This document shows, in pieces, positions 14,178 through 33,052 of a stretch of DNA of 64,000 nucleotides. Positions within the stretch are counted from its first letter, which is position 1; each line of letters starts with the position of its first letter. This DNA comes from Blastocatellia bacterium (GTDB lineage: Bacteria > Acidobacteriota > Blastocatellia > Pyrinomonadales > Pyrinomonadaceae). The translations under genes were made by a program, and so were the position numbers. Location of the stretch: NCBI GenBank assembly GCA_003168335.1, contig PMSM01000002.1, positions 484,899-548,898 of the forward strand. The letters run 5' to 3'. The notes under the pieces were generated by a model that was not told the DNA's origin, made no database searches, and saw only the letters and a list, made by a program, of their open reading frames with translations.

Positions 14178-15401
14178 CTATTGAAACGCGACGTGACCCC
14201 CGACGATTGTCAGCCGCAGATTCCGAGCTTCATCCAGAGCCACCAGATCCGCGCGCTTCCCTTCCTCAATCGATCCGCAATCAACATCGATTCCCAGCAG
14301 GCGCGCAGGATTCAGTGAGGCCATGCGCGCTACGTCGGATTCAAAAATTCCGAGCGAGAGCATCATGCGGACCGCGTCCAGCATGGTGATAACTGAACCC
14401 GCAATGCTGCCGCGGGCGTTTTGAGTCCGGCCGTCTTTCACCACAATCTTCTCGTCCCAGATGTGATACTCGCCGTCGCCAAGCCCGGTGGGCGCAATGG
14501 CATCGCTGATCAAAGAAACTCGGTCCGCGGTCTTGCTGCGCAGAATTAACTTGAGTATGGAAGGGTCGACATGGATTCCGTCGGCGATCACGTCACAGGT
14601 GACCTGATCGTGAATCAGGCCCCAGCCCACCGGCCCAGGCGCGCGATGATGCAACGGCGCCATGGCATTCATGAAGTGGGTCATATGATGGGCGCCGGCC
14701 CGCAGTGCTTCGTCGAGAACGTCGACTGTGGCGCGCGTATGCCCGATTGAAATGATCCATCCGCGCCGGTGAAGTTCGTGGATCAGGGCAACGCCGCCCT
14801 CGATCTCCGGCGCGAGGGTCATCATGTGGATCGCGCTTTCGTGCTTGATTGTCGGGAGCGCATCAAGGTCGGCCGCATTTTGATAAGGGCGAAAGTGCTC
14901 GCGATGAAGCGCGCCGCATTGTTCGCTGTTAACAAACGGACCTTCATAGTGAACGCCAAGAACGCGCGCTGGTGGCACAGACTTCAGTCTGTGATCGCGA
15001 GCGCCGGAATCAGCACAGACTGAAGTCTGTGCCACCGCCTTTTCAATCGCGTGGATCGCTTGTTCGTATTGCTCAATCGTCGAGGGCACCAGCGTCGGCA
15101 ACCAGGCAGTGACCCCCTTACTTGCCAGAAACATTCCGACTCGGCCCAGGTCGTCCGCGTTCGCGGCCATCGTGTCGACACCGGCGGCGCCGTGAATGTG
15201 GAGGTCTATGAATCCGGGGAAGAGAGTGAGGCCGTCCAGATCGACTACGGCATCGGCCGCCGGCAACTGAGGTGTTTCCGAATCAAAAACTCGGACGATG
15301 TGACCTGCTTCGATCAGCACAGCGCCCTGCTCGATCACGCGATCGTGACCGATGATCCGCGCGCCGCGCAATAGAAGCGAGTTGGTCGAATCTGGTGCCA
15401 T
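14178..15401 (-). CDS. nagA: N-acetylglucosamine-6-phosphate deacetylase (carries an in-frame palindromic insertion)
   Basis: GFIDLHIHGAAGVD metal site, LPTL, LGVHYEGPF, SIGHT, THFMNAM, DGIHV and GSIAGS motifs of NagA. 407 aa. Confidence 0.9.
   Translation of the reverse strand: MAPDSTNSLLLRGARIIGHDRVIEQGAVLIEAGHIVRVFDSETPQLPAADAVVDLDGLTLFPGFIDLHIHGAAGVDTMAANADDLGRVGMFLASKGVTAWLPTLVPSTIEQYEQAIHAIEKAVAQTSVCADSGARDHRLKSVPPARVLGVHYEGPFVNSEQCGALHREHFRPYQNAADLDALPTIKHESAIHMMTLAPEIEGGVALIHELHRRGWIISIGHTRATVDVLDEALRAGAHHMTHFMNAMAPLHHRAPGPVGWGLIHDQVTCDVIADGIHVDPSILKLILRSKTADRVSLISDAIAPTGLGDGEYHIWDEKIVVKDGRTQNARGSIAGSVITMLDAVRMMLSLGIFESDVARMASLNPARLLGIDVDCGSIEEGKRADLVALDEARNLRLTIVGGHVAFQ
14971..15036. 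repeat. Perfect 66-bp nested palindrome inside the nagA coding sequence
   Basis: GGTGGCACAGACTTCAGTCTGTG (14971-14993) is the exact reverse complement of CACAGACTGAAGTCTGTGCCACC (15014-15036), with a 20-nt spacer. Each arm is itself a hairpin (CACAGACT-nn-AGTCTGTG). Confidence 0.95.
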
Positions 15402-15481
15402 GTTGTTGAGCTATTAAAACACGATCAGACCCCAAACGTACGAATGCCCGCAGCGTTTTCGCCACGGGCATCCGGTTAGGT

Positions 15482-15500
15482 CTAACGCTCAAAGCGTTAG
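15482..15500 (-). terminator. Hairpin immediately after the TonB-dependent receptor stop codon
   Basis: CTAACGCT-CAA-AGCGTTAG is a perfect 8-bp stem abutting the stop at 15501-15503. A second hairpin (GCCCG...CGGGC) follows at ~15445-15475. There is no clear U-tract. Confidence 0.35.
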
Positions 15501-18500
15501 CTAGAAGATGAACTTCGCCCCCAGTTGAATCGTGCGCGGGTCGCGCACGACGCTGACATTGCCGTACGTAGCAGACGTGACATTCACGATTATCGTCTGG
15601 AAGTTCGTGTGATTGAAAATGTTGAAGGCTTCCGCGCGAAGCTGCACCTGCAGCGATTCGCCAAAGCGAAAGTTCTTACTCATCGTGAAGTCAACACGCT
15701 GGGTTGGTGGGCCATTGATAACGCCACGACCTCCGTTGCCGATGACGTTGGTCACGCCGGTCGTAAGTACCGTGGGGTTGAGCTGGAAACAAGCGGTGTT
15801 GAAGTACTGCTGGAGCGTATGCGGTGCATTAGCGTTTGGATCGCACAGGACGTTCGGCCTCGCGCCGGCGACCAGGGCCGGGACGAATCCCAGGCCGGCC
15901 GCGTCGAAGGAGGAAGTTGCCGGCGTGAACGGTATGCCGCTGCGGTAGGCGAGGATGCCTGATGCTTGCCACCCGCCCAAAAGCTTGCCGGCAAACCCTT
16001 CCTGATTGCGGTAGAACGGCAGCTCATAGACGTAATTTATAGTCAGAACATGTCGCCGATCGAGTGTCGCCCTGCCATAGTCAGCCTTGTTGTTGTAAGA
16101 GTTCTGCGAAGCGGTCGAGCGATCCGTTTGATTGTCCGTCATGTTTCGCGACCACGTGTACGCGAGGCTGACCTGCGAAGAGCCGGTGAACCTCCGCTGC
16201 GCGCTCACCTGTAGGCTGTGATAATTCGAGTTGAACTGCGGCGTAATGATCGCAATCGATCGATAACCCCGGTACGGCCGGATTTGATCGAGGATCGCGG
16301 TGTTGGCGGTCGAAGTAAACGCAGCCCCGGGGTTCTGGCAGGGAATCGTTGGCGTAGTTGAAGCGCCCGCGGCGCAAAGCGTCGCCAGTGCCTTTCCCGC
16401 GGGAACTTCATTCAATTCGTAAGTGCCAATCAGATGTGTGCCCTTCGAACCGAAGTAGCCAGCGGTCACTACGGTCTTACCGTCTTTCCCGAACTGATGC
16501 TGCAGGTCCAGATTCCAATGCTGCATGTAGGGATCCTTCCACTCGGGTTGCACGGCCCGCACGCTCAGCGCGGTTAGCGCGGCTGCCGGACTGACAACAA
16601 TTCCGGTGGGAACGGGCAGATCAAGACGGGGTGTGGTTGCGGCCGTTCCCGATGGCAGAGCGCTCGCCGTAAATGTTTCCTGATAGGGCACGTTCTGACC
16701 AATATTCTGTTCGTACGTACCATTCAGAACTTGATCATAGTAAATGCCATAACCCATGCGAACCGACGAAGTGCCTTTGCCAAACGGATCCCAGGCAATG
16801 CCAAAACGCGGACCCAGATCGTTCTTGGGGGCCTTTACGACCTTATTCCCATAGGGCGAAATTGTTGGCGTACAGTTGTTCGGGCCAGTTTGATAGTTCT
16901 GCGCATTTACTGTAATGCCGTCGCAGAAATTGCCCGTACCAACCACGCGATTGCCGGCGCCCGTGACCAGCGGGGCCGTGGCGGGATTGAACAAGGCGGG
17001 ATCAAAATTTGACAGGCGGCCGTTTCTGTCCTCCGGCGAGCCGAAATATGAATAGCGCAGCCCATAGTAGACTGTGATATTGGGCCGTATCTTCCATTCA
17101 TCCTGGCCATAAAACTCGATGGTCTTCTGCCGCAAATCAGCCGTGTAATCAAAGTGCGCCTGAGTAAAAGTCACATTGCTTCCCATCAGGAAGTTTGCGA
17201 AATTCTGGAAGTTCGTACGGCGCGCAGAATTCGGCTCACCCACCGCAGCGTTTGGAGCCAGCACGCTGGTTTGCTGGGCGCTGTTGGCAGTCGTGTTGAG
17301 GAAACCGCTGAACGTGCCTTCGTTGCTTCCCGCCAGCGCGTTTTCGTTCTTGCGGTAGAGGGAATACTGCCCGCCGAATTTAAAAGCGTGCCGGCCTCTG
17401 GTCCAGGCAACGTCACTCGCGAAATTCGCTTTGTAGGAGAAGTTGTTGTAAGGGCCAAAGCTTTGCAACGCACTGAAGCCGTTTCCTGAGATAGTCGGAA
17501 CGCGATCGCGCGTGTTGGCATAAGCTAGGGGCGGCGTGATCGGTGAATTGGCTAACGCCAGGGTGCCAATGTTGCTGCTCAGAATCGCGCCGTAGCCATA
17601 AGTAAAGCGACCGACGATGACCAGATTTGAACTCGCGACATACGTTGACTGGAACGTGTGGGCTTTCCCTGGCGAATCAGTCGCCGTCGTGGAAACACCT
17701 GGCAATCCCGAGCCTGATGAAAATAATGAATTAACGTCCGTTGTCGGGATCTTGTCATGTTCATAGCGATAATACATCGACAACTTGTTGCTGAAGCTGT
17801 AGTCAAGCTTGAGAATCTCTTGGCGGAAATCCGCTTTACCCAGCGCGGGAAATAAAAGAGCGCGAGTGACCGGATCAGTGGGCAAAGGGAGCTGGTTGTA
17901 GATTGAATTTAGGTACTGTTGAGCGATCGGGTTGATCGCCACCTTAGACGATAACGGCTGGCCAGCCAGAAGGACGTTCGTGCACGGGACAGCTCCCGTC
18001 GTTAACGCGGTAAAGGCACTCACACAGACGTCCATTGGGAAAATTCCCTGGCGCATGTTCAGGTCAGGGACGGTTGAAGAGAGCGTGGGATAGCGAAGGT
18101 CGTGGCGCTGTTCTTCTGAAAAGAAGAAGAACGCTCGCTTGATTGTCTTGGTCGAAGCTCCACCCTCTGCAAGCCGCGGAAGGATGATAGGTCCGCCGAC
18201 GGTTCCACCAAAATTGTTGTACTTGAAGGGGGACCGGTTAGCTTTGCCGTTTGTGTCTCTGCCGAAAGCCGGGCTCGAGATAGTGTTTGATAAGAAATCG
18301 TTGGCGTTCAGTTTCTCACTCCGGTGGAATTCAAATATCGAGCCGTGAAAATGATCCCCTCCGGACTTTGTAACCACGTTGACTTGACCGCCGCCACTGC
18401 GTCCTGACTCCGCGAGGAACATTGACCGCAGGACAACAAACTCAGCAATCGAGTCCACGCTCGGATATGCCTGAATCGTGATGTTCGAGCCACGGTCGGT

Positions 18501-19130
18501 GATATCCGCACCATCGACGGTGTAAGTGTTTTGAGCGCTGCGCGCGCCGTTAACCGAGATATTAATCGTGTTGGCCTGACCGGTCGGATTGGTCGTTCCC
18601 ACATACACCTGATCGGACAGGTTGTCGGAGACGCCCGGGGCGAGCGTAACGAGCTGCACCCAGTTGCGATTGTTCAGCGAAAGCTCACGCGCCTGGTCGC
18701 CGCTGATAACGGTCGCGGCCGTCGGGGTTCTCAATTCAACCGCCAGGGGGTTTGCTTCAACTGTTACTACTTCGCTGATGTTACCCGGTTCGAGAGACAG
18801 CTCCAGGCCACGTTTTTGACCGACGTCCAGTTTAACCTTGGTTTCGATGTGCTTCTTGAAGTTCGGCGCTTCAACGGCTATGTCGTAAGAGCCGGACGGC
18901 AGGTCCGGGGCAGAGAAAGCGCCGCTGTCGTCGGTTGTCACCGTTCGAGCCACGACTTTCTTTTCAGCGTCAGTGATGGTCACGGTCGCACCGGCAACCG
19001 CGGCGCCGTTGGGATCTTTCACCCTCCCGTTGATCGAGCCGTTTATTTCCTGGGCCGAGGCGACGAAAACAAAACTAAAGAGAGCAAGTGCTGCAAACAC
19101 AACGCGCAGAAACTGATGGTGGTGTCTCAT
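15501..19130 (-). CDS. TonB-dependent outer-membrane receptor with N-terminal carboxypeptidase-regulatory-like domain (Oar-like)
   Basis: Signal peptide, GRVKDPNGAAVAGATVTITD (CarboxypepD_reg), a plug region and a very long beta-barrel ending in the aromatic C-terminal residue ...GAKFIF. AGAGGA precedes the ATG. Confidence 0.85.
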   Translation of the reverse strand: MRHHHQFLRVVFAALALFSFVFVASAQEINGSINGRVKDPNGAAVAGATVTITDAEKKVVARTVTTDDSGAFSAPDLPSGSYDIAVEAPNFKKHIETKVKLDVGQKRGLELSLEPGNISEVVTVEANPLAVELRTPTAATVISGDQARELSLNNRNWVQLVTLAPGVSDNLSDQVYVGTTNPTGQANTINISVNGARSAQNTYTVDGADITDRGSNITIQAYPSVDSIAEFVVLRSMFLAESGRSGGGQVNVVTKSGGDHFHGSIFEFHRSEKLNANDFLSNTISSPAFGRDTNGKANRSPFKYNNFGGTVGGPIILPRLAEGGASTKTIKRAFFFFSEEQRHDLRYPTLSSTVPDLNMRQGIFPMDVCVSAFTALTTGAVPCTNVLLAGQPLSSKVAINPIAQQYLNSIYNQLPLPTDPVTRALLFPALGKADFRQEILKLDYSFSNKLSMYYRYEHDKIPTTDVNSLFSSGSGLPGVSTTATDSPGKAHTFQSTYVASSNLVIVGRFTYGYGAILSSNIGTLALANSPITPPLAYANTRDRVPTISGNGFSALQSFGPYNNFSYKANFASDVAWTRGRHAFKFGGQYSLYRKNENALAGSNEGTFSGFLNTTANSAQQTSVLAPNAAVGEPNSARRTNFQNFANFLMGSNVTFTQAHFDYTADLRQKTIEFYGQDEWKIRPNITVYYGLRYSYFGSPEDRNGRLSNFDPALFNPATAPLVTGAGNRVVGTGNFCDGITVNAQNYQTGPNNCTPTISPYGNKVVKAPKNDLGPRFGIAWDPFGKGTSSVRMGYGIYYDQVLNGTYEQNIGQNVPYQETFTASALPSGTAATTPRLDLPVPTGIVVSPAAALTALSVRAVQPEWKDPYMQHWNLDLQHQFGKDGKTVVTAGYFGSKGTHLIGTYELNEVPAGKALATLCAAGASTTPTIPCQNPGAAFTSTANTAILDQIRPYRGYRSIAIITPQFNSNYHSLQVSAQRRFTGSSQVSLAYTWSRNMTDNQTDRSTASQNSYNNKADYGRATLDRRHVLTINYVYELPFYRNQEGFAGKLLGGWQASGILAYRSGIPFTPATSSFDAAGLGFVPALVAGARPNVLCDPNANAPHTLQQYFNTACFQLNPTVLTTGVTNVIGNGGRGVINGPPTQRVDFTMSKNFRFGESLQVQLRAEAFNIFNHTNFQTIIVNVTSATYGNVSVVRDPRTIQLGAKFIF

Positions 19131-19226
19131 GATTTTTCCTCTTTACTGGAAGACGATTTAGACCAACTGACCAACTGTTGGACCGTTGCCCAACGGCCTC
19201 GCCGAACATTTGCGGGAAGGCCGGTA

Positions 19227-19254
19227 ATTCTATTAGGCCGAGACTTACAATCAA
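19227..19254 (-). promoter_or_regulatory. Candidate promoter TTGATT-16 nt-TAGAAT for the TonB-dependent receptor gene
   Basis: On the minus strand, TTGATT is at 19254-19249, a 16-nt spacer follows, and TAGAAT is at 19232-19227. This would give a ~90-nt leader before ATG 19130. Confidence 0.35.
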
Positions 19255-19715
19255 AACTAAAAGAATTTATTAGACCGATAAACTGCCTTGATAGGCGGGG
19301 GGCATCATACTCTTTCAGAATCAAGCCTGCCAGATTTTTCAGAATAATGGATGCTTCCTTCAGATTTTCGGACGAGCAGTCCCCGGAAAAACCGATTGGC
19401 GACTCGAATCGATGCCCTTGATCCTTACTCTGCAAAGGAAATACTTGCATGATGCAGTGATCTTCTCTTACCGCCAGCTCGAAAAGCTATCGCGCGCGCG
19501 CTGGATACATTATCGTAGGCAAATGCTGTGCTCACTAAACACAGTCGTGTGAGGGAGGCGAAAACAAACGACATCGTCTTCCTGATCGCGGTCATGCAAC
19601 AACCAGTAAGCTCGGCTCGGCTCGAAGCTACTTGTTCAGAGAGACGGAAGACTAAACTTAAACGGACGGTTTCGAATCGGACGCGAACTGTGACTGGAGC
19701 CGGCGGGCGCAAGCT

Positions 19716-20402
19716 TTAGCCGCAAACATACGCCTCATGAACGCCGCTCAAGAAATCCCAAAGAGATTTCGCTCCTTGTTGAGCAGCTGCGACTGTCTCG
19801 TCGCGAGCCTGATCGGTGTCGCATGCGTCAGTCATGATTTTCATCTCGATCTGACGGTGGACTTGATCCGCTGACTCGTGGACGGTAAAGAATGACACGG
19901 TCCTGGCATCGTCTATTCCGTAATACTGTTTCAAACCAACTCGTTTCGTCTTAGCCACCTCTGGAATTTGAGACTCGTAGGCATAGAGGACTGCCACCCC
20001 AAGCCGATAATCAGTGTTCGCGGTCAGTGACTTGAGACTGTTCACAGATTCCCTGGTCGAGGGTAGTAGCTCTGCGGTTCTGACCTGGGCCCGACTCACT
20101 CCGAGGCCTTCGGCAAAACGCAGCCACAACTCCGGGTGATTGTCTTCTCCGCGTTCTTCTTCGATCAGGTTCTCGAGGAGTAGCTGTCTAACCGGCAGAT
20201 TATCACAACGGGAGTGTACGGCACTTACATAAGTCGGAAAGGCGCAAACGTGCGCATAGTATTGCTTGGCGTACTCAGCCAGCGTGGTGTCGCTGAGCTT
20301 TCCTTCGTTCCAGAGCTGATAAAAAGGATGCCTCAACATTGCATACTGGCCAATCGCCTCGTCGATTCTTTGCGGCAACAACTGCTGTCGTGTCATGTTC
20401 AC
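19716..20402 (-). CDS. CADD/PqqC-like heme-oxygenase-like diiron protein (putative pABA/folate-related)
   Basis: HPFYQLWNEGKLS..LAEYAKQYYAHVCAFPTYVSAV...LLENLIEEERGEDNHPELWLRFAEGLG matches the CADD family core. By eye the gene is more AT-rich than its neighbours. Confidence 0.75.
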   Translation of the reverse strand: MNMTRQQLLPQRIDEAIGQYAMLRHPFYQLWNEGKLSDTTLAEYAKQYYAHVCAFPTYVSAVHSRCDNLPVRQLLLENLIEEERGEDNHPELWLRFAEGLGVSRAQVRTAELLPSTRESVNSLKSLTANTDYRLGVAVLYAYESQIPEVAKTKRVGLKQYYGIDDARTVSFFTVHESADQVHRQIEMKIMTDACDTDQARDETVAAAQQGAKSLWDFLSGVHEAYVCG

Positions 20403-20492
20403 CCTCCTGATGAGATAAGTCCGATGTTCGAGTGGCGAGATTATAGAACACTCTCGCCGCTTCGTTACTGAATTTCTTTTGAGGTCTGCGCC

Positions 20493-22955
20493 CTATTCGT
20501 AAAGCAAATATTTCCTGCGGGTCCGGTTAAAGCTTTCCAGCGCTGTAGCCCACGAACGAACAACGTCAGCGGCGGGCTCTCCGCGCCGCAAACGCTCGAG
20601 CGTGTCCGCGTTAACCAGCAGGCGCGAATAATTGTCGATCTTCCAGTCGGCGGGAAATAAACTGTGCAACGCCACCGCGATCTCGACGCCGGTGAGCACA
20701 GATTGGAACTGCGAGCGATTGGTTATCAACAGGTTTATGCCACCGCACTCTTCGTTCTTGAAGACCGACGACCTGGGTGTGAAGCGAACGGCAATGAAGC
20801 GCACGCCGGCAATTCTGCGGGCATTCAAATAGCTCGCCAGCTTCTGCCCATCCAACCAGGGCGCGCCCATCACTTCGAAGGGCGTGTCCGTTCCGCGGCC
20901 CACGGAAAGGTTGGTCGTTTCCAGTAAGCCAACGCCCGGATACAGCGCGGCTTCCGTCAGGCTGCGCATGTTGGGTGAAGGATTGATCCAGACGAGACCC
21001 GTCGCGTCGAACCACATCGATCGCTGCCAACCTTCCATCTTGATAACGCGTAAATCCGCGCCGATGTGGCGCTCGTCATTATAGAGTCGTGCCAATTCGC
21101 CAATCGTCAATCCATGCCGAACCGGCAACGTGTGGTAAGCAGTGAAAGAAAGTTTATCTGCGTCGGCAATTGGCCCTTCGACATCGTTGCCGTTAATCGG
21201 ATTGGGACGGTCGAGCACAAATACCGGTAGCCTGGCTTTGCCAGCTTCTTCCATCACGTAGCCCAGGGTCGCGATGTAGGTGTAGAAACGCACGCCGACG
21301 TCCTGAATGTCGTAAACCAGCGCGTCGAGGTCTTTCAACTGGTCGGCTTTTGGGCGGCGCGATTCGCCATAAAGTGAATAGATCGGCAACCCGGTCTGTT
21401 CGTCTTTCGTGTCTGAAACTTTCTCGTCCGCGAGTCCACGAATGCCGTGCTCAGGTGAAAAGAGCGCCGACAATTTGACGCCCGGCGCTTTGAAAAGAAT
21501 GTCGATAGTCGATCGGCCGGCACGATCCCGTCCCGTCTGATTGGTGACCAAACCAATTCGCAAACCCGCAAGCTGTTTGAAGCCATCGCGCTCGAGCACA
21601 TCGATCCCGGTCAACACTTGTGCGTCGGCAACGGGACCAGGGTTAACGATTGTTCGCGCGCTGTTTGAATTCAGGCGAGCAAGACTCGCGAGCACTTCCG
21701 CCGCTGCGCCTGCCGATTCTTCGCGGGCTTTCGTTACCGTAGTGTCGGTGATTGAACTCGCAACGATCGACGCCACTCGTCCGCGCAACGGCCCTACATC
21801 TCCCTTGCCATCCGGATGCACGCGATTACTCAGAACGATCACGAACGAATCGCTCGCCGGATCGATCCACATCGATGTCCCGGTGAAGCCGGTGTGGCCA
21901 AACGAACCGAGCGGGAACAGATCCCCTTTGTTGGTCGAGAAGCTGGTCGCTATGTCCCAGCCCAATCCACGCGCCGATCCGTTTTCGGCAATTGCCCGGG
22001 GTCGCGTCATCGTCGCTACTCCCATCGGACTGAGAATTCGCACGCCGTTGTAAATGCCTCCGTTCAAAATCATCTGGCAAAAGATCGCCAGATCATTGGC
22101 CGTAGAGAACAAACCAGCGTGCCCCGCGACTCCGTTCATGCGAAACGAAGTGGGGTCGTGCACCTGTCCGCGCAACCACTGCTCGCCTTGCGGTCCGGCG
22201 TTCTCACCACTGTCACCGAGATAGTTCATCTGGCCGCGCCGTTTCTCGGTCGGTGCGATTCGGGATCTCAGTCCAGCGTCTGGGTTAAAGCCGGTATCGC
22301 GCATTCCCAGCGGCCCAAAAATATTTTCCCGCGCGAACTGATCAAGCGTCTGTCCGCTTACTCGATGCACTACTTCGCCCAAAGCGATGTAGTTGATGTC
22401 ACTGTAGACAAAGCGCGCACCCGGTTGATTGCGCAGGGGTTCGCGATACAGCCTCTTGATCGCTTCGTCGTACCCCGTCCAGCGCTCTCGCAAATCGAAA
22501 TCAGGAGCAAACCCGGCCGTATGGGTCAGCAGTTGCTCGATCGTGATCGCATCTCGGCCTCCGCCCTTCATTTCGGGTATGAACGTGACCACCGGATCGC
22601 TCAGACGCACTTTGCCCTGCTCGATTAGAATCATGATGCTGGTTGTCGTGGCAACTATCTTGGTCAGACTGGCGAGGTCGAAAATCGTGTCCGCCGTCAT
22701 CGCTTCGCGCTGCGGTTCGACCGCGCGTGAACCGTAAGCTTTGCGCCAGGCGATGCGGCCGTGGCGGGCGACCAGCACCACCGCGCCGGGCAATTCTTTC
22801 TTTTCGATTGCAGCCTGGACGACCTGATCCATACGGGCCAGGCGTTCGGCGGACATGCCGACAGCGGCGGGCGCGGTTTGCGGCAGTTGCGCTGCGATGG
22901 TTTGCGCCAGCAGAACTACCAGCGCGATGGAAAGCCTGATATGCTGGGCCATCAT
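20493..22955 (-). CDS. Secreted fusion: beta-lactamase-fold serine hydrolase (AmiE/PBP4*-like) + DUF1343 exo-beta-N-acetylmuramidase (NamZ-like)
   Basis: Signal peptide. The N-domain has SLTK (FDLASLTKIVATT), YSDINY and HTGFTG. The C-domain has LVTNQTGRDRAGRSTIDILF...LFSPEHGIRG...VYDIQDVGVRFYTY, typical of DUF1343. The start overlaps the nagZ stop (ATGATGA). Confidence 0.8.
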   Translation of the reverse strand: MMAQHIRLSIALVVLLAQTIAAQLPQTAPAAVGMSAERLARMDQVVQAAIEKKELPGAVVLVARHGRIAWRKAYGSRAVEPQREAMTADTIFDLASLTKIVATTTSIMILIEQGKVRLSDPVVTFIPEMKGGGRDAITIEQLLTHTAGFAPDFDLRERWTGYDEAIKRLYREPLRNQPGARFVYSDINYIALGEVVHRVSGQTLDQFARENIFGPLGMRDTGFNPDAGLRSRIAPTEKRRGQMNYLGDSGENAGPQGEQWLRGQVHDPTSFRMNGVAGHAGLFSTANDLAIFCQMILNGGIYNGVRILSPMGVATMTRPRAIAENGSARGLGWDIATSFSTNKGDLFPLGSFGHTGFTGTSMWIDPASDSFVIVLSNRVHPDGKGDVGPLRGRVASIVASSITDTTVTKAREESAGAAAEVLASLARLNSNSARTIVNPGPVADAQVLTGIDVLERDGFKQLAGLRIGLVTNQTGRDRAGRSTIDILFKAPGVKLSALFSPEHGIRGLADEKVSDTKDEQTGLPIYSLYGESRRPKADQLKDLDALVYDIQDVGVRFYTYIATLGYVMEEAGKARLPVFVLDRPNPINGNDVEGPIADADKLSFTAYHTLPVRHGLTIGELARLYNDERHIGADLRVIKMEGWQRSMWFDATGLVWINPSPNMRSLTEAALYPGVGLLETTNLSVGRGTDTPFEVMGAPWLDGQKLASYLNARRIAGVRFIAVRFTPRSSVFKNEECGGINLLITNRSQFQSVLTGVEIAVALHSLFPADWKIDNYSRLLVNADTLERLRRGEPAADVVRSWATALESFNRTRRKYLLYE

Positions 22956-24871
22956 TTTTTGGGGCGCGCTTTCAGTTGGATTCCGGTGCCGCGAGGATAC
23001 AGACCCGGCAGCGAAATCGGCAAGTGGCCAGTGACATCGATTTGTCCCAGCAGCGCTTCGGCACTCGCTTCCTGCAGGCTCTGCATGTCGCCATACGCGA
23101 CGAGATATGTTTGTAGTTTGGGAAAACTGCCCAGCAGATAGGGATTGCCAAAGCTGATTCCGACTATCGGCGTCTGGCGATCAATTAAGGTCGCCAACAC
23201 CTTTGCGCCGGGTTCGGGCAGAGCGACACTGCGGGCCTGACCGGTACGCACACGGCCATACAGGGAAGCAATCACCAGATCCGCGCGGCCGGCCAGGTCG
23301 AGGGCTTTTTTCACCTCCGCCTCGGACGAGCGATCGTCGAGGACGATCGTTACTACTTTTCGCCCTGAGCGGGCCAGGGTAGACACGAAAGGCTGAGTAA
23401 TAAATGAGCGGTCGTCACCGTTGGTGATGGCGAGGTTGAAAACGGTTGCCGTCGGCGGAAGGTTCAGTGGCAGCAGTGCGGCGTCGTTGCGAACCAGAGT
23501 GATGGCATGCGCGGCGATCTCATCAGCCAGTTCCAAAGTCTCCTTGCCTCCCACAATTCGATCTATCTCATCCAATGGCGTGATGCGTTGCTCGATCAAT
23601 CCCAGATCGTATTTCGCAGCCAGGACTTTTCGCGCGGACTCTTCGATGCGCTTCTCAGTTAGCCTGCCTTTCTTGACCGCATCGCGCACGCCGCGAAAGG
23701 CTGCATCCGTATCGGCAGGCTTCAAAAGTAAATCCGCGCCCGCCTCCAGCGCGCGGATCGATGCCTCTTCCTGAGTAAAGTAGAGCGTAAGGCCGCTCAT
23801 GCTCATCGCGTCGGTCACGATCAGTCCGTCGAAGCCTAGTTCGTTACGCAGAATCTTGTTCATGACCGGTGAGAGTGTGGTTGGCATCGTTCCTTTCTCA
23901 GACACAATTTCCCCGGCCTCGTCAGTCTCAATCGGTCCCAGCTTCACATCCCGAGGCAGTGGTGTGATGGCCGTCGGATCGATCAACGGCAAGCCGATAT
24001 GACCATCCATGACCGCGCCAACGCCGGCGTTGACCGCGGCGCGGAAGGGGACCAGTTCGACTGAGTTCAAGCGCTCGCGGGTGACATCAATCTCCGGCAG
24101 GCCGCGATGCGAATCGGTCGCCGTGTCACCGTGTCCGGGAAAATGTTTGGCCGTGGCAATCACTCCGCCGCGTTGCGCGCCCAAGACGAAGGCTGCGACC
24201 AGTTTGGCTACTTCCGCGGGATCCTCGCCATACGAACGCACGTTGATGACCGGATTGGCGGCGTTGTTGTTTACGTCGGCGACCGGGGCGTAAATCTGCT
24301 GCACGCCCAGCGCTCGTGCTTCGCGCGCGGTCAATTCGCCCTGCCGTCGCGCGTAATCCGGATTAGCCGTGGCGCCGACGGCCATGTTCCAGGGGAAGTT
24401 CACCGTATCGTCAAAGCGCATGCCCGCGCCCGCTTCCAGGTCTGAAGAAATCAGCAAAGGGATCTTTGCGAGTTGCTGCATCCGATTGACCAGCATTACG
24501 GACTCGTAAACCGGTCCTCGAAACAGGACGATCCCCCCGACATGGTTGTCCATCACTTGATGGCGGAGATCCTTGAATGCTTCACTGTTCTGATTCAAGA
24601 ACGTTGCGTTGAGACCGACCGCAATCAGTTGGCCAATCTTCTCTTCGATCGACATGCGCTTGAGTTCTTTGTCGGCCCACTTAAGTGCAGCTGAAGACGG
24701 TTTTCGAGAGTACGGCTTGAATGAGTTTTCGCGCAGCGGGGCGTTTAAAAACGCCAGCCGTGGCTCGATGCGAGGTGTCATGCTCCGCGCCATCAGCGGC
24801 GACGTTTGAATAATCAGCACCGCCAGCATCAAGGGCGTGGTGAGTCGACGAATCGTTCCAGTGGTTATCAT
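22952..24871 (-). CDS. nagZ: Secreted two-domain GH3 beta-N-acetylglucosaminidase
   Basis: Signal peptide, GH3 motifs KHFPGHGDTATDSH and VTDAMSM, plus a C-terminal alpha/beta-sandwich domain. At 639 aa it is similar in size and architecture to Bacillus NagZ/YbbD. Confidence 0.85.
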   Translation of the reverse strand: MITTGTIRRLTTPLMLAVLIIQTSPLMARSMTPRIEPRLAFLNAPLRENSFKPYSRKPSSAALKWADKELKRMSIEEKIGQLIAVGLNATFLNQNSEAFKDLRHQVMDNHVGGIVLFRGPVYESVMLVNRMQQLAKIPLLISSDLEAGAGMRFDDTVNFPWNMAVGATANPDYARRQGELTAREARALGVQQIYAPVADVNNNAANPVINVRSYGEDPAEVAKLVAAFVLGAQRGGVIATAKHFPGHGDTATDSHRGLPEIDVTRERLNSVELVPFRAAVNAGVGAVMDGHIGLPLIDPTAITPLPRDVKLGPIETDEAGEIVSEKGTMPTTLSPVMNKILRNELGFDGLIVTDAMSMSGLTLYFTQEEASIRALEAGADLLLKPADTDAAFRGVRDAVKKGRLTEKRIEESARKVLAAKYDLGLIEQRITPLDEIDRIVGGKETLELADEIAAHAITLVRNDAALLPLNLPPTATVFNLAITNGDDRSFITQPFVSTLARSGRKVVTIVLDDRSSEAEVKKALDLAGRADLVIASLYGRVRTGQARSVALPEPGAKVLATLIDRQTPIVGISFGNPYLLGSFPKLQTYLVAYGDMQSLQEASAEALLGQIDVTGHLPISLPGLYPRGTGIQLKARPKK

Positions 24872-24895
24872 GTGTCTCCGAATGAATTTCCCAGA

Positions 24896-26404
24896 TCAAC
24901 TGTCAGGAAGCAGCGGAGGATTCTTTGCCGGCCCTGTTATTAAGCTGACCGCATAGCCAACTGACGAACATATGATCGTCCCCGTCAACACGTACCAGGT
25001 CCATGCTAGTGGCGTCCTGAGCCATACATACAACATAACGCCGAGGGCCACGGCCATTCCGGCCATCACGCCTCTTTGGTTGGCGCGCTTCGTTAGGACG
25101 CCCAGCAAAAAAGCTCCCAACATGGCTCCGTACGGCAACGACGCTATCGTAAGCGCAGTATTGAGGACCGACTTTGTGAAACTCTTTGATGCTATTGCGA
25201 TGACGATCAGCACCAGGCCCCACCCTACCGTGAACCAACGTGACAATCGCAAGAGAGATTCGTCCGATACCTGAGGATTGACCAGCGGTCTATATAGATC
25301 GAGGGCCGTGCTCGATGAAAGCGAATTCAAGGAACCGCTGAGATTAGACATCGCAGCGGCAAAAATGGCAGCGATAACCAGTCCGGATATCCCGTGTGGC
25401 AATTGGCGAACGATAAAGAACGGAAAAATCTGATCGTTGCTCTCCAGCGTGGGTCTTGGTGCACCAGTTTGGTAGTAGGCATAGAGCATGACACCGATCA
25501 GGAGGAATAGAACGAACTGAAACAGCACGACGAATCCACTCAGAATAATTGCCTTCTGGCTGTCTCGTTTATTTCGGCAGGTAAGTAGTCTCTGGACCAG
25601 TAGTTGATCAGTTCCATGCGAGGCCATGGTTAGGAATGTGCCCCCCAGGAGGCCGGCCCAGAAAGTAAACGGCACCGTCAGGTCGAATTTGAACGAGACC
25701 ATCTGAAACTTGTTTGCCGCCGCGGCCTGCGCCGCAATTGCATTCCACCCGCCCGGCACCAGATGCAGCAGTTCGTAGGCTGCCAGCAGAGAGCCCCCAA
25801 CGTAAATTATTAGCTGAATCAAATCGGTCCAAATTACCGCGGCGATGCCACCTTCAAAGGTGTAAACCATGGTCAGCAGTCCGACGATGATAATCGACCA
25901 AAGCCACAGGTAAGGCAGCTGCGGCATGCTGGCACCAAGGACTGCACTGAGCACGAGCGAAGCCGAGAAGATTCGTATCCCTTCGCCCATCGCACGCATC
26001 CCCAGAAACAACGAAGCCGCAAAGTTCTTTGTTTGCGGCCCAAATCTTCTCCGCAGGAGTTCATATGCCGTTAGCAACTCGCCGCGAAAGTACGCTGGAA
26101 TAAAGAGGAAGCTAATGATAAAGCGCGCCACGATATAGCCGAGGACCACCTGCAGGTAGGTGAAGTTACCGCCCTGTTCCGGTCGGGCATAGTTTGCGTA
26201 GGCGATAGCTGGAACACCGATCAGAGTGATCGTGCTGGTCTCGGTGGCCACGATCGAGAGGCTGATGATTATCCAGTGAGTGTTCTTGGCGCCTATAAAA
26301 TAGTCTTTGACGGTCCGTTGCGATCGCCTAAACATCATGCCGAAGATCGTGATCCCGGCGAGATAGATCAGCAGCACCGCGTAGTCTATGGTGGAGAAGC
26401 CCAT
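24896..26404 (-). CDS. Sodium:solute symporter (SSF) family transporter
   Basis: 502-aa polytopic protein with an SSF-type pattern (GG..AVIWTD.IQ, HGTDQ.LVQR). Confidence 0.8.
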   Translation of the reverse strand: MGFSTIDYAVLLIYLAGITIFGMMFRRSQRTVKDYFIGAKNTHWIIISLSIVATETSTITLIGVPAIAYANYARPEQGGNFTYLQVVLGYIVARFIISFLFIPAYFRGELLTAYELLRRRFGPQTKNFAASLFLGMRAMGEGIRIFSASLVLSAVLGASMPQLPYLWLWSIIIVGLLTMVYTFEGGIAAVIWTDLIQLIIYVGGSLLAAYELLHLVPGGWNAIAAQAAAANKFQMVSFKFDLTVPFTFWAGLLGGTFLTMASHGTDQLLVQRLLTCRNKRDSQKAIILSGFVVLFQFVLFLLIGVMLYAYYQTGAPRPTLESNDQIFPFFIVRQLPHGISGLVIAAIFAAAMSNLSGSLNSLSSSTALDLYRPLVNPQVSDESLLRLSRWFTVGWGLVLIVIAIASKSFTKSVLNTALTIASLPYGAMLGAFLLGVLTKRANQRGVMAGMAVALGVMLYVWLRTPLAWTWYVLTGTIICSSVGYAVSLITGPAKNPPLLPDS

Positions 26405-26421
26405 TTGGATCTTTTCGGTTG

Positions 26422-27336
26422 CTAGCCCGACGCGAGCAGCGTGATTGCCTGCGCGACTACGCCTTTCGTTTCCTGCAATGCTCTCTTTGCTTCCGCGGCC
26501 GTGCGGCCGGTCTTGCTCATTACCAGCGCCACCGGCAAATCATCGCCGGCTTCCGCGAGGACTTTTTTGGCTTGCTCTTCGTCCAGTCCCGATTCAAGTT
26601 GCAGAATGCGCAAGGCGCGCGCGCGCAACTTAACGTTGCGCGTTTGCACATTCGTCATGCGATTGCCGGTGACGTAGCCGAGCCGAATCATCGTCGCAGT
26701 CGAGATCATATTGAGCACCAGCTTCTGTGCGGTCCCGGCTTTCAAACGCGTCGAACCGGCGATAACTTCCGGACCAACAACTGGAACTATGCTGATCTCC
26801 GCGGCCTTTGTGATCGAAGATCCGGGCACGCAGGTGATCGCCACCGTGAAGGCGCCGAGTTTTCGTGCCTGCTCAACCGCGCCCACCGTGTAGGGTGTTC
26901 GCCCCGATGCTGCAATGCCGACCAACGCGTCTTGCTTTGTGAAACCGCGCGCCTGGAGATCGCGGGCACCGGCGGCTGCATCGTCTTCGGATGCTTCGAC
27001 GGCGCGATAACACGCTTCGTATCCGCCCGCCATGATCCCCTGTACCAGTTCCGGGGAGACGCCGAAGGTCGGCGCACATTCCGCGGCGTCGAGCACGCCG
27101 AGCCTTCCTGATGTTCCCGTGCCGAGGTAAAAAAGCCGGCCGCCTTTATTAAGTCGGGTGACGATTCCGTCCACCGCTCGCGCAACCTCAGGCAAGACCT
27201 GCGCGACTGCGGCCGCTACGCGCGCATCTTCTTCGCTCATCAGACGCAGAATCTCCGTAGTCGGCAAAGAACTGATTTGCGCCGTGCGCGGATTTTCTTG
27301 CTCAGTTAATGGAGTGGACTCAGGAGCTTCTGGCAT
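26422..27336 (-). CDS. murQ: N-acetylmuramic acid 6-phosphate etherase
   Basis: SIS domain with LFYLGTGTSGRLGVLDAAECAPTFG, IAASGRTPY and STRLKAGTAQK.VLNMIST, as in MurQ. Confidence 0.9.
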   Translation of the reverse strand: MPEAPESTPLTEQENPRTAQISSLPTTEILRLMSEEDARVAAAVAQVLPEVARAVDGIVTRLNKGGRLFYLGTGTSGRLGVLDAAECAPTFGVSPELVQGIMAGGYEACYRAVEASEDDAAAGARDLQARGFTKQDALVGIAASGRTPYTVGAVEQARKLGAFTVAITCVPGSSITKAAEISIVPVVGPEVIAGSTRLKAGTAQKLVLNMISTATMIRLGYVTGNRMTNVQTRNVKLRARALRILQLESGLDEEQAKKVLAEAGDDLPVALVMSKTGRTAAEAKRALQETKGVVAQAITLLASG

Positions 27337-27399
27337 TTCGAGAAAGGTAATTCGCGGACATTATCGGATGTTCACTAATGAAAGTACCGAAACGTGCGC

Positions 27400-28389
27400 T
27401 CAGACCGCAACCGGCAATCCATGCAGATGCTCTTGCGCCAGGCGGCCGGCAGCGACCGTGGGCGAAAAGCTTGGGGCGGCAATAAAAGCCTTCTGGGCGA
27501 CGCGCGCTATTTCCTCGCGCAATGGTGCGATCACAAATTCACCGGCGGCGAAAACACCCCCGACGAAAGCTACCTGAAAGCGCTCCGGCTCCATTTTCAA
27601 CTTGCGAACTACGGTTGCCGCTGCTTTGCCCAGCTCTTTTCCTGCTTCGGTCAAAATATTACGAGCCACGGTGTCCCCCCCCCGCGCCGTTTCAATAACG
27701 CGTTTGCTAAAGCCGGCTATCCGATCGTTGGTGATCGTCGGGGCGTAGATCGCAGTTGATAGATCATCGGCTGTGGCCACCTGAAAATATTCACATGCGG
27801 CTGCGGTCAATGCCGTCCTGGGCCCACGCTCATCACTTGCATGCGCCACCGCCTGCAGCGCACGTCTGGCGATCCATGATCCGCTGCCTTCGTCGCCGGC
27901 GACCGGGCCCCAGCCTCCGGCATACACGTGCTTGCCCTGCCGGTTGACGCCGCAGCAAATTGATCCGGTGCCGGAAATTACGACAATTCCCGGCGCACCG
28001 TCAGTGGCGCCATACAAAGCGATGTCGCCGTCAGTCATCAGCTCGATGTTTTTGATCTCCAGCGTTTCGATTAAGACTTCGCGCATGCGCGTGCGGATGT
28101 CTTTGCGTCTGACACCGGCGAGGCCAATTCCGGCGGCAATCAGATCATCACGATCGATCCGAGCCGCAGAGCACGCCTTGTCGATAGCTTCGCGAATGGC
28201 CGCGGCGCCGTTGGCAATCCCCACGCGTAACGGATTTGAGGGGCCAGATGTGCCTTCACCCAACACCCGATCGCCGTCAAGAATCGCCGCTCGAGTTCGG
28301 GTCCCGCCGCCGTCAACGCCTACAACCAGTTTCCGCAACGGAGCCAGCCGCCGCGGTACCAGGTCCACAGTTGTTTGCGTTGTCGTCAT
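27400..28389 (-). CDS. BadF/BadG/BcrA/BcrD-type sugar kinase (GlcNAc/MurNAc kinase, MurK-like)
   Basis: ASKHA N-terminal phosphate-1 motif VGVDGGGTRTRAAI, then ISGTGS and GGWG..AGDEGSG. It sits directly upstream of murQ. Confidence 0.7.
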   Translation of the reverse strand: MTTTQTTVDLVPRRLAPLRKLVVGVDGGGTRTRAAILDGDRVLGEGTSGPSNPLRVGIANGAAAIREAIDKACSAARIDRDDLIAAGIGLAGVRRKDIRTRMREVLIETLEIKNIELMTDGDIALYGATDGAPGIVVISGTGSICCGVNRQGKHVYAGGWGPVAGDEGSGSWIARRALQAVAHASDERGPRTALTAAACEYFQVATADDLSTAIYAPTITNDRIAGFSKRVIETARGGDTVARNILTEAGKELGKAAATVVRKLKMEPERFQVAFVGGVFAAGEFVIAPLREEIARVAQKAFIAAPSFSPTVAAGRLAQEHLHGLPVAV

Positions 28390-28431
28390 TACGGTCTTTC
28401 GATGTCTGCTGAAGCTGTAGGGATTTCTATT

Positions 28432-28446
28432 CTAGGAACGCCCTAG
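28432..28446. promoter_or_regulatory. Candidate LysR-type T-N11-A dyad in the divergent murK-like/lysR spacer
   Basis: CTAGGAACGCCCTAG is CTAGG-N5-CCTAG and contains T-N11-A. It lies immediately 5' of a TATAAT (28448-28453) upstream of the LysR gene. Confidence 0.35.
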
Positions 28447-28506
28447 CTATAATGGAAACTAAAAGATCTTATCCACGTAATAAACCTCGTTGATGCAGAG
28501 GAAATC

Positions 28507-29457
28507 ATGGACATCAGACAACTAAAGGCATTTGTAGCGATAGCGGAGAGCGGCACTTTCACTGCGGGAGCCGTGCGGGTCCATGTAACGCAGGCGGCCA
28601 TCAGCATGCAGATCCGGCAATTGGAAACCGAGACCCACGCGCAGCTTTTCATCCGTGCTCCACGGCGCGTGATTCTTACAGAGGCGGGCGAGAAACTGCT
28701 CGAGCGCGCGTACACAATCCTGCGCGAGCACGATGCGGCCTTGGAAGAACTCGCCGCGCTCACCGGCGCTCATCGCGGGCGACTCCGCATTGGCAGCGCA
28801 TCAGCGATGGTCAGCGCCGATCCTTTGCCGCAGATTCTCAAAGAGCTGCGCGGGACGCATGCCGGCGTCGAGACCTCTGTCGGTTCGGGAACCAGCGAGT
28901 CGTTGGTGAAACAGGTACTGGCGGGCGAGCTCGACGCGGCTTTTGTGTCCTTGCCTGTCGAGGCGCGCGGAGTGCAAACAGAACTTTTGAGCGAGGATTA
29001 TTTGGTAGCGATTGCCTCGCCTCGCCACCCGATGGCAAAACAAAAGATCGTCAGCGCCTACGCGCTGGCGGGTGAGAAGCTGATTCTCGGAGAGCGCGGC
29101 GGCAATACCCGACGACTCATCGATCAGTTTTTTGCCCAGGCCGGCGTGACGCTAAAGGTCACAATGGAGTTGAGCCGGCTGGCGGCCATCAAGCGCATGG
29201 TGGAAGAAGACATGGGCGTCGGCATCGTGCCCTTGCGGTCAGTTCAGGAAGAAGTGCGGAGCGGAAGCCTGGTGCGTTGGTGGATCGAAGGCGCGCAAAT
29301 CAACTGGCAACTCGGCGTGGCGCGGCTCGTCGGTGGTTACGAATCGCCGATCCATCTAAAGTTCCTGCAACTTTGCCGCGAACATTTCGCCCAACCCGCG
29401 GCGGTGACTCCGCCCTCACGGCAGAAACAAAAACAAAAGAAAAAAGCGGCCGTTTAG
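28507..29457 (+). CDS. LysR-family transcriptional regulator
   Basis: N-terminal wHTH MDIRQLKAFVAIAESGTFTAGA..VHVTQAAISMQIRQLE plus a substrate-binding domain. It is divergent from the murK-like operon. Confidence 0.85.
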   Translation: MDIRQLKAFVAIAESGTFTAGAVRVHVTQAAISMQIRQLETETHAQLFIRAPRRVILTEAGEKLLERAYTILREHDAALEELAALTGAHRGRLRIGSASAMVSADPLPQILKELRGTHAGVETSVGSGTSESLVKQVLAGELDAAFVSLPVEARGVQTELLSEDYLVAIASPRHPMAKQKIVSAYALAGEKLILGERGGNTRRLIDQFFAQAGVTLKVTMELSRLAAIKRMVEEDMGVGIVPLRSVQEEVRSGSLVRWWIEGAQINWQLGVARLVGGYESPIHLKFLQLCREHFAQPAAVTPPSRQKQKQKKKAAV

Positions 29458-30634: not shown

Positions 30635-30692
30635 GTCGATGACGAAGATTACACGATGAGGTGAGCGGGGCGGTAGCCCGAGGGAGTTCTCA

Positions 30693-33024: not shown

Positions 33025-33052
33025 TTTGAATGAACAACCGCTACCTGATGCC

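Follow-up and report, generated by a model that had tools for sequence, protein, structure and literature searches.

The described gene clusters for the use of N-acetylmuramic acid (MurNAc) that come closest to the locus treated here are namZ1-murT-murK-murQ of Tannerella forsythia (10.1101/2021.12.02.470905; PMC5790795), murQ-murR-murP-amiE-nagZ-namZ of Bacillus subtilis (PMC8054146) and murR/murQ-murP-yfeW of Escherichia coli (PMC5061867). NagZ, AmiE and NamZ of B. subtilis are separate enzymes, and their sequential stripping from the non-reducing end has been shown biochemically (PMC8054146). The locus under study lies in a 64-kb stretch of DNA, in the following called the window, from a member of the Pyrinomonadaceae (Blastocatellia, Acidobacteriota), a soil Acidobacterium, and was analysed by sequence and context alone. 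It comprises genes for a sugar kinase, MurQ, a sodium:solute symporter family (SSF) protein, a NagZ of family GH3, a β-lactamase-fold::NamZ fusion protein, a TonB-dependent receptor (TBDR) and NagA, together with a LysR-type regulator. We regard it with good confidence as a peptidoglycan (MurNAc) scavenging regulon of two transcription units, apparently under the control of this one LysR-type transcriptional regulator (LTTR).

Like the cluster of T. forsythia and Bacteroides, which occurs with ampG, the locus would provide a diderm import route for MurNAc that is free of a phosphotransferase system (PTS), with a transporter of the sodium-symporter superfamily, a BcrAD_BadFG kinase, MurQ and a periplasmic NamZ. 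Unlike in T. forsythia, AmpG, a lytic transglycosylase and glycosyltransferases are missing from the window locus, NamZ carries a fused β-lactamase-fold domain, there is a two-domain NagZ of the Bacillus type, an LTTR and a co-regulated TBDR-nagA unit take part, and the kinase is closer to the MurK of Clostridium than to that of T. forsythia. MurQ and the trio of exported NagZ, AmiE-type protein and NamZ are shared with B. subtilis (PMC8054146), from which the locus differs by symporter and kinase in place of the PTS transporter MurP, an LTTR in place of the RpiR-type MurR, the fusion of the amiE-like and namZ genes, a diderm envelope with an outer-membrane receptor and the linkage of nagA. 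A regulator divergent from the operon and a PBP4B-type protein encoded within the murQ operon are held in common with E. coli (PMC5061867), whose system has PTS uptake and an RpiR regulator and is without NamZ, an exported NagZ and a TBDR. The coupling of an outer-membrane TBDR to nagA for amino-sugar use is known from the N-acetylglucosamine (GlcNAc) clusters of Caulobacter crescentus (PMC13046382). These act on GlcNAc, have a GntR-type regulator, a PTS and NagB, and contain no MurNAc enzymes, whereas the window TBDR is of the Oar/CarboxypepD_reg type. Its likeness is to Oar of Myxococcus xanthus, a TonB-dependent transporter (TBDT) with an N-terminal CarboxypepD_reg domain and a large barrel, which has been implicated in the export of PopC (PMC6434023).

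The original prediction for this DNA held the combination of genes to be without precedent. This is only partly right, because the core of symporter, kinase, MurQ and NamZ has already been described in T. forsythia and Bacteroides and the β-lactamase::NamZ fusion is widespread; the coupling to LysR and TBDR, on the other hand, is undescribed in the literature searched. That literature also yielded no description of AmiE-like::NamZ or NagZ::AmiE-like fusions, of MurR replaced by an LTTR whose operator is defined, or of an Oar-type TBDR and nagA coupled to MurNAc genes by regulation and synteny.

The regulator, its promoter module and the transcription units

The regulator has the HTH_1 and LysR_substrate domains in profile searches. 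Its gene is divergent from the kinase gene, and this pair was kept in five related loci (L005, L010, L085-L087) as well as in four rearranged ones (L125, L129, L131, L132). An AmpR-like regulator was considered; no AmpR model was among the NCBIfam matches listed (best 25 of 54). A T-N11-A dyad had been predicted in the spacer between the two genes. In this form the statement is trivial, the 117-nt spacer containing 14 T-N11-A strings, but a conserved element, TTATCCACGTAATAA, is indeed present at 28469-28483. A search of the spacer for short inverted repeats gave trivial palindromes only. Alignment of nine LysR/kinase spacers revealed the dyad TTAT-N7-ATAA, with fixed arms and a variable centre, and the same pattern of constant TTAT and ATAA arms around seven variable nucleotides was observed in 12 kinase promoters and 15 TBDR promoters.

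In the window TTAT-N7-ATAA has two matches (28469-28483 and 19267-19281) for an expectation of 0.16. Extended to the 28-nt module TTAT-N7-ATAA-NN-TCTTTTAGTTT, the pattern occurs exactly twice in the 64 kb, both times on the minus strand, for an expectation of 0.00. The two copies can be aligned with each other; one is located upstream of the kinase gene, the other upstream of the TBDR gene. A promoter is predicted behind each of them, with the -35 hexamer TTTCCA (28453-28458) and the -10 hexamer TAGAAT (28429-28434) for module 1, and TTGATT (19249-19254) and TAGAAT (19227-19232) for module 2, so that the -10-like TAGAAT stands at a matching distance behind both copies. The box of module 2 is located 137 nt upstream of the TBDR start codon, and in 26 loci, with TBDRs 55-99% identical, the box centre is 131-141 nt from that codon. 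The related loci, 2.48 Mb in total, contain 86 boxes, of which 49 were found at most 450 nt upstream of a recognised gene start, 38 of them before a TBDR and 11 before a kinase gene. The extended module was more selective: 46 of 54 copies precede one of these two genes. Domain content, divergent transcription and a conserved T-N11-A dyad upstream of the target promoter are the marks of an LTTR, and all three were found. One LysR-type regulator appears to control both transcription units via TTAT-N7-ATAA.

Six more extended modules precede unassigned open reading frames (ORFs); in five of these ORFs a secreted amidohydrolase of the D-aminoacylase family is encoded, just upstream of the TBDR. 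A secreted amidohydrolase of this family is encoded in the window at 1796-3547 (minus strand), and a 42%-identical paralogue stands directly behind a LysR module in L094/L095 (about 7917-9722), L151, L160 and L162. This suggests a further member of the regulon, which may act on D-amino-acid stem peptides.

At 19131-19380 (minus strand), in front of the TBDR gene, lies non-coding DNA that is more conserved than the TBDR protein. It has no match in Rfam and includes the block ...GATCCATTATTCTGAAAAA... upstream of the LysR box and a conserved leader of about 95 nt that begins with GGCCTTCCCGC, contains a GGCC...GGCC hairpin and reaches down to the TBDR start codon. An ORF of 107 aa at 19127-19450 was rejected as a gene because of its overlap with the TBDR start, its low-complexity translation and its position over the conserved promoter region.

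The identities and coordinates of the nine genes named in the original prediction were all borne out by the ORF listing and by profile searches (Table 1).

Table 1 Features of the proposed MurNAc locus, in the order of their positions in the window
Feature	Position	Strand	Description
nagA	14178-15401	minus	NagA, 407 aa, GlcNAc-6-phosphate deacetylase
TBDR	15501-19130	minus	Oar-like TonB-dependent outer-membrane receptor, 1209 aa
Promoter module 2	19254-19281	minus	LTTR box TTATCGGTCTAATAA (19267-19281) then ATTCTTTTAGTTT
CADD	19716-20402	minus	CADD-family 4-aminobenzoate synthase homologue, 228 aa
β-lactamase::NamZ fusion	20493-22955	minus	820 aa, secreted (predicted)
GH3 NagZ	22952-24871	minus	639 aa, two-domain, B. 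subtilis YbbD type, secreted (predicted)
SSF symporter	24896-26404	minus	502 aa, sodium:solute symporter family
murQ	26422-27336	minus	MurNAc-6-phosphate etherase, 304 aa
BadF/BadG-family kinase	27400-28389	minus	329 aa, candidate MurNAc (or MurNAc/GlcNAc) kinase
Promoter module 1	28456-28483	minus	LTTR box TTATTACGTGGATAA (28469-28483) then GATCTTTTAGTTT
LysR-type regulator	28507-29457	plus	316 aa, divergent from the kinase operon

Kinase, murQ, SSF, nagZ and fusion gene form a five-gene operon with the LysR gene divergent from it. The gaps from kinase to murQ, SSF and GH3 measure 63, 17 and 24 nt; GH3 stop and fusion start overlap by 4 nt (ATGA), the actual sequence being AAATGATGGCC and not the literal ATGATGA that had been predicted. 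After the fusion gene follow 90 nt to CADD, 585 nt to the TBDR gene and 99 nt from there to nagA. Although all of these genes are on the minus strand, as claimed for a single co-directional array, TBDR and nagA are beyond the 585-nt gap and probably form a transcript of their own rather than a part of one co-directional operon. A terminator scan gave 23 candidates for a shuffled expectation of 18.5, which is not above chance and provides no usable operon boundary. Rfam had no match inside the locus at gathering thresholds and none in the 585-nt gap at E <= 1. Signal-peptide-like N-termini were found in GH3, fusion protein and TBDR only; kinase, MurQ and NagA are without them. The closest homologues are annotated as Blastocatellia or Pyrinomonadaceae. 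In profile searches neither a PTS nor an RpiR gene turned up in the locus or its surroundings. Without the MurP PTS and the RpiR-type MurR of a B. subtilis-type operon, the locus is a functional analogue of that operon.

Enzymes and transporter of the proposed pathway

Profile searches found both the N- and the C-terminal GH3 domain in NagZ, and the protein aligns over its full length with B. subtilis YbbD/NagZ (3bmx; residues 66-634 with 35-637, E 6e-66). The signature KHFPGHGDTATDSH at residues 242-255 corresponds to the NagZ consensus KH(F/I)PG(H/L)GXXXXD(S/T)H (PMC5615308) and includes the Asp-His dyad. Consensus, two domains and signal-like N-terminus together are those of a YbbD-type NagZ, so that the predicted two-domain GH3 nagZ with signal peptide could be upheld on alignment, motif and N-terminus.

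The fusion protein, for which a signal peptide is predicted, unites matches to Beta-lactamase (PF00144, 263 bits), NamZ_N (280 bits) and NamZ_C (150 bits). An N-terminal PBP4B/AmiE-like serine β-lactamase fold (about residues 40-390) is followed by a C-terminal NamZ (GH171) part (about 445-820). The latter covers positions 1-202 of 203 of the NamZ_N model and 2-152 of 152 of NamZ_C, as expected of a NamZ/GH171 sequence, and matches the Bacteroides DUF1343 structure 4k05 with 1e-73. The N-terminal domain has the SxxK, Y-x-(N/D) and (K/H)-x-G motifs of the β-lactamase fold and is 31% identical to YfeW/PBP4B of the E. coli murQ-murP-yfeW operon. In an alignment of 32 diverse fusions, 37-49% identical to the window protein, S96-x-x-K99, Y184 and H354-x-G356 were invariant and E502 (SPEHG) and R687 (GRGT) nearly so. 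By motif context, E502 and R687 are candidate counterparts of two BsNamZ residues, the putatively catalytic Glu92 where β2 ends and Arg279 of the C-domain (PMC8054146). Exo-muramidase activity is predicted for the NamZ domain and amidase activity for the N-terminal domain; the latter is called AmiE-like by its context only. Glycans that carry peptides are not attacked by NamZ enzymes (10.1101/2021.12.02.470905), which explains why a fusion of an amidase to NamZ would be favoured.

Variants of the exported enzymes were observed in other loci. L028 encodes (6873-9782, minus strand) a 969-aa fusion of GH3 (N and C domains) with a Beta-lactamase domain, that is NagZ::AmiE-like, beside murQ and opposite the β-lactamase::NamZ fusion. 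With it, the three exo-enzymes are connected by a second fusion. In Pirellulales a stand-alone NamZ paralogue, 36-44% identical, directly follows the fusion (L016, 7223-8218; L019, 12361-13347; L030, 7229-8194) and recalls the division of labour between NamZ1 and NamZ2 in T. forsythia.

The kinase is a BcrAD_BadFG protein (PF01869, 161 bits) with the phosphate motif DGGGT at residue 26. Among solved structures it comes closest to 8zo3 (E 1.8e-37), which was deposited as 'N-acetylmuramic acid/N-acetylglucosamine kinase'. The gene adjoins murQ here, in Pyrinomonadaceae loci and in Pirellulales loci, and a BcrAD_BadFG/ASKHA kinase with a DxGxT motif beside murQ has the properties of the MurK family. 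Its sequence makes it a candidate kinase of MurNAc or of both MurNAc and GlcNAc. As a specificity marker, the residue preceding the catalytic Asp, a T in T. forsythia MurK, was dropped, the alignment to the T. forsythia structure being unreliable. The same holds for the alignment of the pocket residues described in PMC10465942, a pocket enlarged for the lactyl ether being expected of a MurNAc-specific enzyme. MurQ and NagA exceed the cut-offs of their equivalog models (TIGR00274, 367 bits for a cut-off of 302; TIGR00221, 298 bits for 226). MurQ is 48% identical to E. coli MurQ, and the positions of Glu83 and Glu114/Asp115 (E. coli numbering), which we take to be the catalytic residues, are kept in the aligned motifs LDAAEC and SED. 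A protein encoded in the window at 430-1551 (plus strand) is homologous to NagX, the transmembrane glucosamine N-acetyltransferase of Shewanella (209 bits, below cut-off); the NagK model against which the locus kinase scores best is from the same Shewanella nag cluster.

The symporter is an SSF protein (SSF 135 bits; TIGR00813) with ten hydrophobic stretches, some of them long enough for two helices, and its nearest solved relative, 5nv9, was deposited as a 'putative sodium:solute symporter'. Membership in the sodium symporter superfamily and clustering with murK and murQ are the properties of MurT; by this association the protein is inferred to be a MurNAc importer and MurT analogue. Homologues 37-50% identical were present at most 10 kb from the fusion gene in 27 of 80 genome loci, often together with murQ, in Acidobacteriota, Planctomycetota and one metagenome-assembled genome (MAG) labelled Janthinobacterium. 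The slot between murQ and nagZ is filled by either of two SSF sub-types that are only 42-46% identical, one in L005, L006, L086, L117, L129 and L131, the other in the window, L010, L085 and L087. As the sub-types differ though the fusion proteins are 86-89% identical, this looks like an in-situ replacement of the transporter gene.

All gene assignments hold, and the four-step pathway of the original prediction is the reading best supported by the evidence. From the first promoter, unit 1 (28389 down to 20493) would be transcribed with kinase, murQ, SSF, nagZ and fusion gene, possibly with read-through into CADD, and from the second promoter unit 2 (19130 down to 14178) with the Oar-type TBDR and NagA. 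Fragments of peptidoglycan, whether environmental or released by the cell's own turnover, would reach the periplasm, the larger or oligomeric ones presumably via the TBDR. There NagZ would take off the terminal GlcNAc, the β-lactamase-fold domain would cut the stem peptide from MurNAc and the NamZ domain would free MurNAc; this sequence is proposed because of the NagZ-AmiE-NamZ sequence of B. subtilis and the fusions themselves. The symporter would import MurNAc and the kinase convert it to MurNAc-6-phosphate (MurNAc-6-P), which MurQ is predicted to cleave into GlcNAc-6-phosphate (GlcNAc-6-P) and D-lactate. NagA would then deacetylate GlcNAc-6-P to glucosamine-6-phosphate; for these last two enzymes the family assignments pass curated cut-offs. 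The regulator may bind TTAT-N7-ATAA just upstream of the predicted -35 at both promoters and presumably responds to an intermediate of the pathway. Along this route we infer the substrate of the TBDR, the specificity of the kinase, the substrate of the symporter and the amidase activity.

Distribution, the receptor and competing explanations

The β-lactamase::NamZ fusion is widespread, occurring in at least seven phyla. By length and query coverage, well over 100 of the best 150 clusters (50% identity) fit a protein with both domains. A scan with one genome per species gave at least 600 matches, and synteny was taken from the best 80 loci (tblastn), which are labelled as five orders or classes of Acidobacteriota and as Planctomycetota, Verrucomicrobiota, Myxococcota, Rokubacteria, Burkholderiales and Armatimonadota. 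The gene neighbourhood, whose conservation across Acidobacteriota had been proposed as a check, is retained to different extents: the core order is kept in Pyrinomonadaceae, and murQ or SSF are found near the fusion gene in Terriglobia. The order LysR, kinase, murQ, SSF, GH3, fusion is maintained in Pyrinomonadaceae relatives with fusion proteins 69-89% identical. Relatives with fusion proteins 81-89% identical keep this core and the class-V aminotransferase gene beside LysR, and the DNA after the fusion gene is variable. In Pirellulales kinase and murQ are divergent from SSF and fusion, with a second NamZ often next; in Terriglobia murQ, SSF or a second β-lactamase paralogue are near the fusion. 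The order nagA, SSF, fusion was found in three loci, a MAG labelled Janthinobacterium lividum and two Terriglobia. At least one of SSF, murQ and kinase was located at most 10 kb from the fusion in 20 of the 41 loci with at least 20 kb of DNA, the linked SSFs all being 37-50% identical.

The receptor has a signal peptide, a CarboxypepD_reg domain (71 bits), a Plug domain (22.4 bits, just under the cut-off of 23.9) and a large β-barrel (OMP_b-brl_4, 619 bits), the composition of an Oar-like TBDR. Its synteny was followed in a scan of close relatives that gave 80 metagenome loci with TBDRs 53-99% identical. Of the 57 loci with enough downstream DNA, 52 have a co-directional nagA at most 3 kb behind the TBDR, typically after a gap of about 70-250 nt, and a co-directional fusion gene precedes the TBDR within 10 kb in 17 of the 29 loci with enough upstream DNA. 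In a second gene order (L125, L129, L131, L132), one strand carries GH3, SSF, murQ and kinase and the opposite strand LysR, fusion, TBDR and nagA; the distance from fusion to TBDR is 275-299 nt in L125, L129 and L131, the three in which it was measurable. The Terriglobia loci L027 and L079 have murQ, an Oar-type TBDR, GH20, NlpC/P60-SH3, an MR_MLE-family epimerase and the fusion co-directionally with short gaps, and this TBDR is 35-36% identical to the window TBDR, compared to 22-26% for neighbouring paralogues. L018 carries TBDR, SSF, murQ, fusion, NlpC/P60-SH3 and epimerase; L028 carries TBDR, a GntR regulator, a MurA-like gene and murQ with the GH3::β-lactamase fusion opposite the β-lactamase::NamZ fusion. 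NlpC/P60-SH3 and MR_MLE epimerase presumably resemble the YkfC/YkfB pair of B. subtilis that degrades murein peptides. Shared promoter module, TBDR-nagA-fusion synteny in two gene orders and the Terriglobia operons independently support the view that receptor and nagA belong with the murQ block, which had been the most speculative step of the original prediction.

CADD is a passenger gene without a role in the pathway. The protein matches TIGR04305 with 275 bits for a cut-off of 200, and its solved relatives (9pj4, 8va9, 1rcw) are deposited as '4-aminobenzoate synthase' or CT610; the match to 4-aminobenzoate synthases assigns it to folate and not to wall metabolism. The gene is missing at this position in L005, L010 and L085-L087 and stands between fusion and TBDR in eight other loci, among them L096, L098, L117, L136, L137, L150 and L156 (Pyrinomonadaceae).

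Several observations weigh against a MurNAc scavenging regulon. Nowhere in the window were nagB, ampG or anmK seen; for nagB, whose absence had been predicted, this holds for the scanned ORFs of at least 180 aa. The fusion gene was without a recognised partner within 10 kb in 21 of the 41 longer genome loci. TBDR-anchored loci with a recognisable cluster resemble the Pyrinomonadaceae loci, and as the scan was one of close relatives, the TBDR counts do not represent independent events. The kinase matches T. forsythia MurK weakly (E 1.6e-5) and scores as well against the Shewanella NagK model (NagK_SO3507, 148 bits, below the cut-off of 370) as against Clostridium MurK, and for both reasons it could be a GlcNAc kinase. 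The N-terminal domain of the fusion reaches 211 bits where the PBP4B equivalog model (NF002968) demands 385, and PBP4B itself, going by the reference list of PMC5061867, was reported as a DD-carboxypeptidase and not as an amidase. TBDR-nagA pairs, finally, are also typical of the uptake of GlcNAc or chitin oligomers, e.g., in Caulobacter (PMC13046382).

The N-terminal domain could accordingly be read as a PBP4B-like DD-carboxypeptidase/endopeptidase or an esterase, with another enzyme removing the peptide. PBP4B is its best curated model, its solved relatives are carboxylesterases, and the SxxK, Y-S-D and HxG motifs are compatible with any of these activities. This explanation is nevertheless rather improbable: NamZ enzymes are inactive on peptide-bearing glycans (10.1101/2021.12.02.470905), B. 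subtilis has AmiE in the same operon position beside NagZ and NamZ (PMC8054146), and the missing amidase is the simplest reading of a domain found joined to NamZ in hundreds of genomes and, in L028, to NagZ.

For the receptor we propose, tentatively and with some doubt, a function as dedicated outer-membrane transporter of peptidoglycan fragments (glycan strands or muropeptides), as part of a 'peptidoglycan utilisation locus' with LysR, exo-enzymes and NagA that would allow Acidobacteriota to feed on bacterial necromass. No dedicated outer-membrane transporter of peptidoglycan fragments was found described in the literature searched. If TBDR and nagA instead served the uptake of GlcNAc or chitin oligosaccharides, the co-regulation would reflect the shared GlcNAc-6-P, and muropeptides and MurNAc would enter via porins. 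Clusters with a GlcNAc-induced TBDR and NagA do exist in Caulobacter (PMC13046382), GlcNAc-6-P from any source is a substrate of NagA, GH3 NagZ and the GH20 of Terriglobia could trim chitooligosaccharides as well, and the kinase resembles NagK-type enzymes. We consider this unlikely, since the scanned ORFs of the window contain no chitinase, GlcNAc transporter or nagB alongside the TBDR, and the fusion gene directly precedes the TBDR in four loci. The Terriglobia TBDR is moreover placed between murQ and NlpC/P60-SH3, Ala-Glu-epimerase-like and NamZ fusion genes, which are all without a function in the use of chitin. Terriglobia operons and fusions argue against both a GlcNAc/chitin function of the receptor and a DD-peptidase function of the fused domain.

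Still less likely is a locus that recycles the cell's own wall turnover products in the periplasm, without foreign scavenging and with an unrelated substrate of the Oar-type TBDR. All enzymes have recycling counterparts in B. subtilis or E. coli (PMC8054146, PMC5061867), and murE in the window indicates that the organism makes a wall itself. Since these loci contain many Oar-type TBDRs, a second paralogue often being close by, adjacency of the TBDR alone is a weak argument. The shared conserved promoter module, however, speaks against an unrelated TBDR, as does the linkage of TBDR and murQ in a second class of Acidobacteriota, and recycling and scavenging can coexist. Export of NagZ and AmiE::NamZ by the TBDR for digestion outside the cell is very improbable: the founding Oar is needed for secretion of the protease PopC and not for import in Myxococcus (PMC6434023), the window TBDR has the same CarboxypepD_reg and β-barrel architecture, intact peptidoglycan is too large for a TBDR and the B. 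subtilis enzymes are extracellular (PMC8054146), but no sequence feature here separates export from import, characterised TBDTs are nearly all importers, and the pairing with cytoplasmic NagA suits nutrient uptake better.

Genomic context and significance

On the plus strand of the window are a glcD::glcE fusion (6955-9933), a γ-glutamyltransferase gene (10123-11889) and glcF (12375-13733) of glycolate oxidase. Nearly all TBDR loci have glcF convergent with nagA. GlcDEF of E. coli also oxidises D-lactate, and D-lactate is the by-product of MurQ. Next to the LysR gene a class-V aminotransferase (SufS/kynureninase-like) is encoded at 29519-30763 (minus strand); it is directly beside LysR in the relatives whose DNA reaches that far (L010, L085-L087). 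Two Acido-Lenti-1 RNA motifs (RF01687) in opposite orientation, at 30695-30739 (minus) and 30893-30937 (plus), score 40 and 48 bits for a gathering threshold of 37 and lie in the gap between the aminotransferase and glycogen-branching-enzyme genes. The glycogen/sugar block at 30946-39956 (minus), with GH13 branching enzyme, GH57, ROK glucokinase and a sugar ABC transporter, and murE at 3842-5353 (plus; meso-diaminopimelate-adding ligase, above cut-off) are ordinary context.

Muramic acid and the amino sugars of dead bacteria constitute a large, slowly cycling pool of carbon and nitrogen in soil. The consumers of peptidoglycan are poorly known, as is its passage across the outer membrane of diderm bacteria. 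As a peptidoglycan scavenging regulon it offers a testable model that consists of a regulator, a defined operator at two predicted promoters, a candidate receptor of the outer membrane and a predicted fused amidase-muramidase. As evidence of the Rosetta-stone type, the AmiE::NamZ and NagZ::AmiE fusions lend independent genomic support to the sequential NagZ, AmiE and NamZ mechanism proposed for B. subtilis. NamZ-type exo-muramidases, as recognised by sequence, extend to Acidobacteriota, Planctomycetota, Verrucomicrobiota and others, beyond the range reported earlier, which was mainly Bacteroidetes. If the receptor indeed takes up peptidoglycan fragments, abundant soil Blastocatellia and Terriglobia could feed on bacterial necromass.

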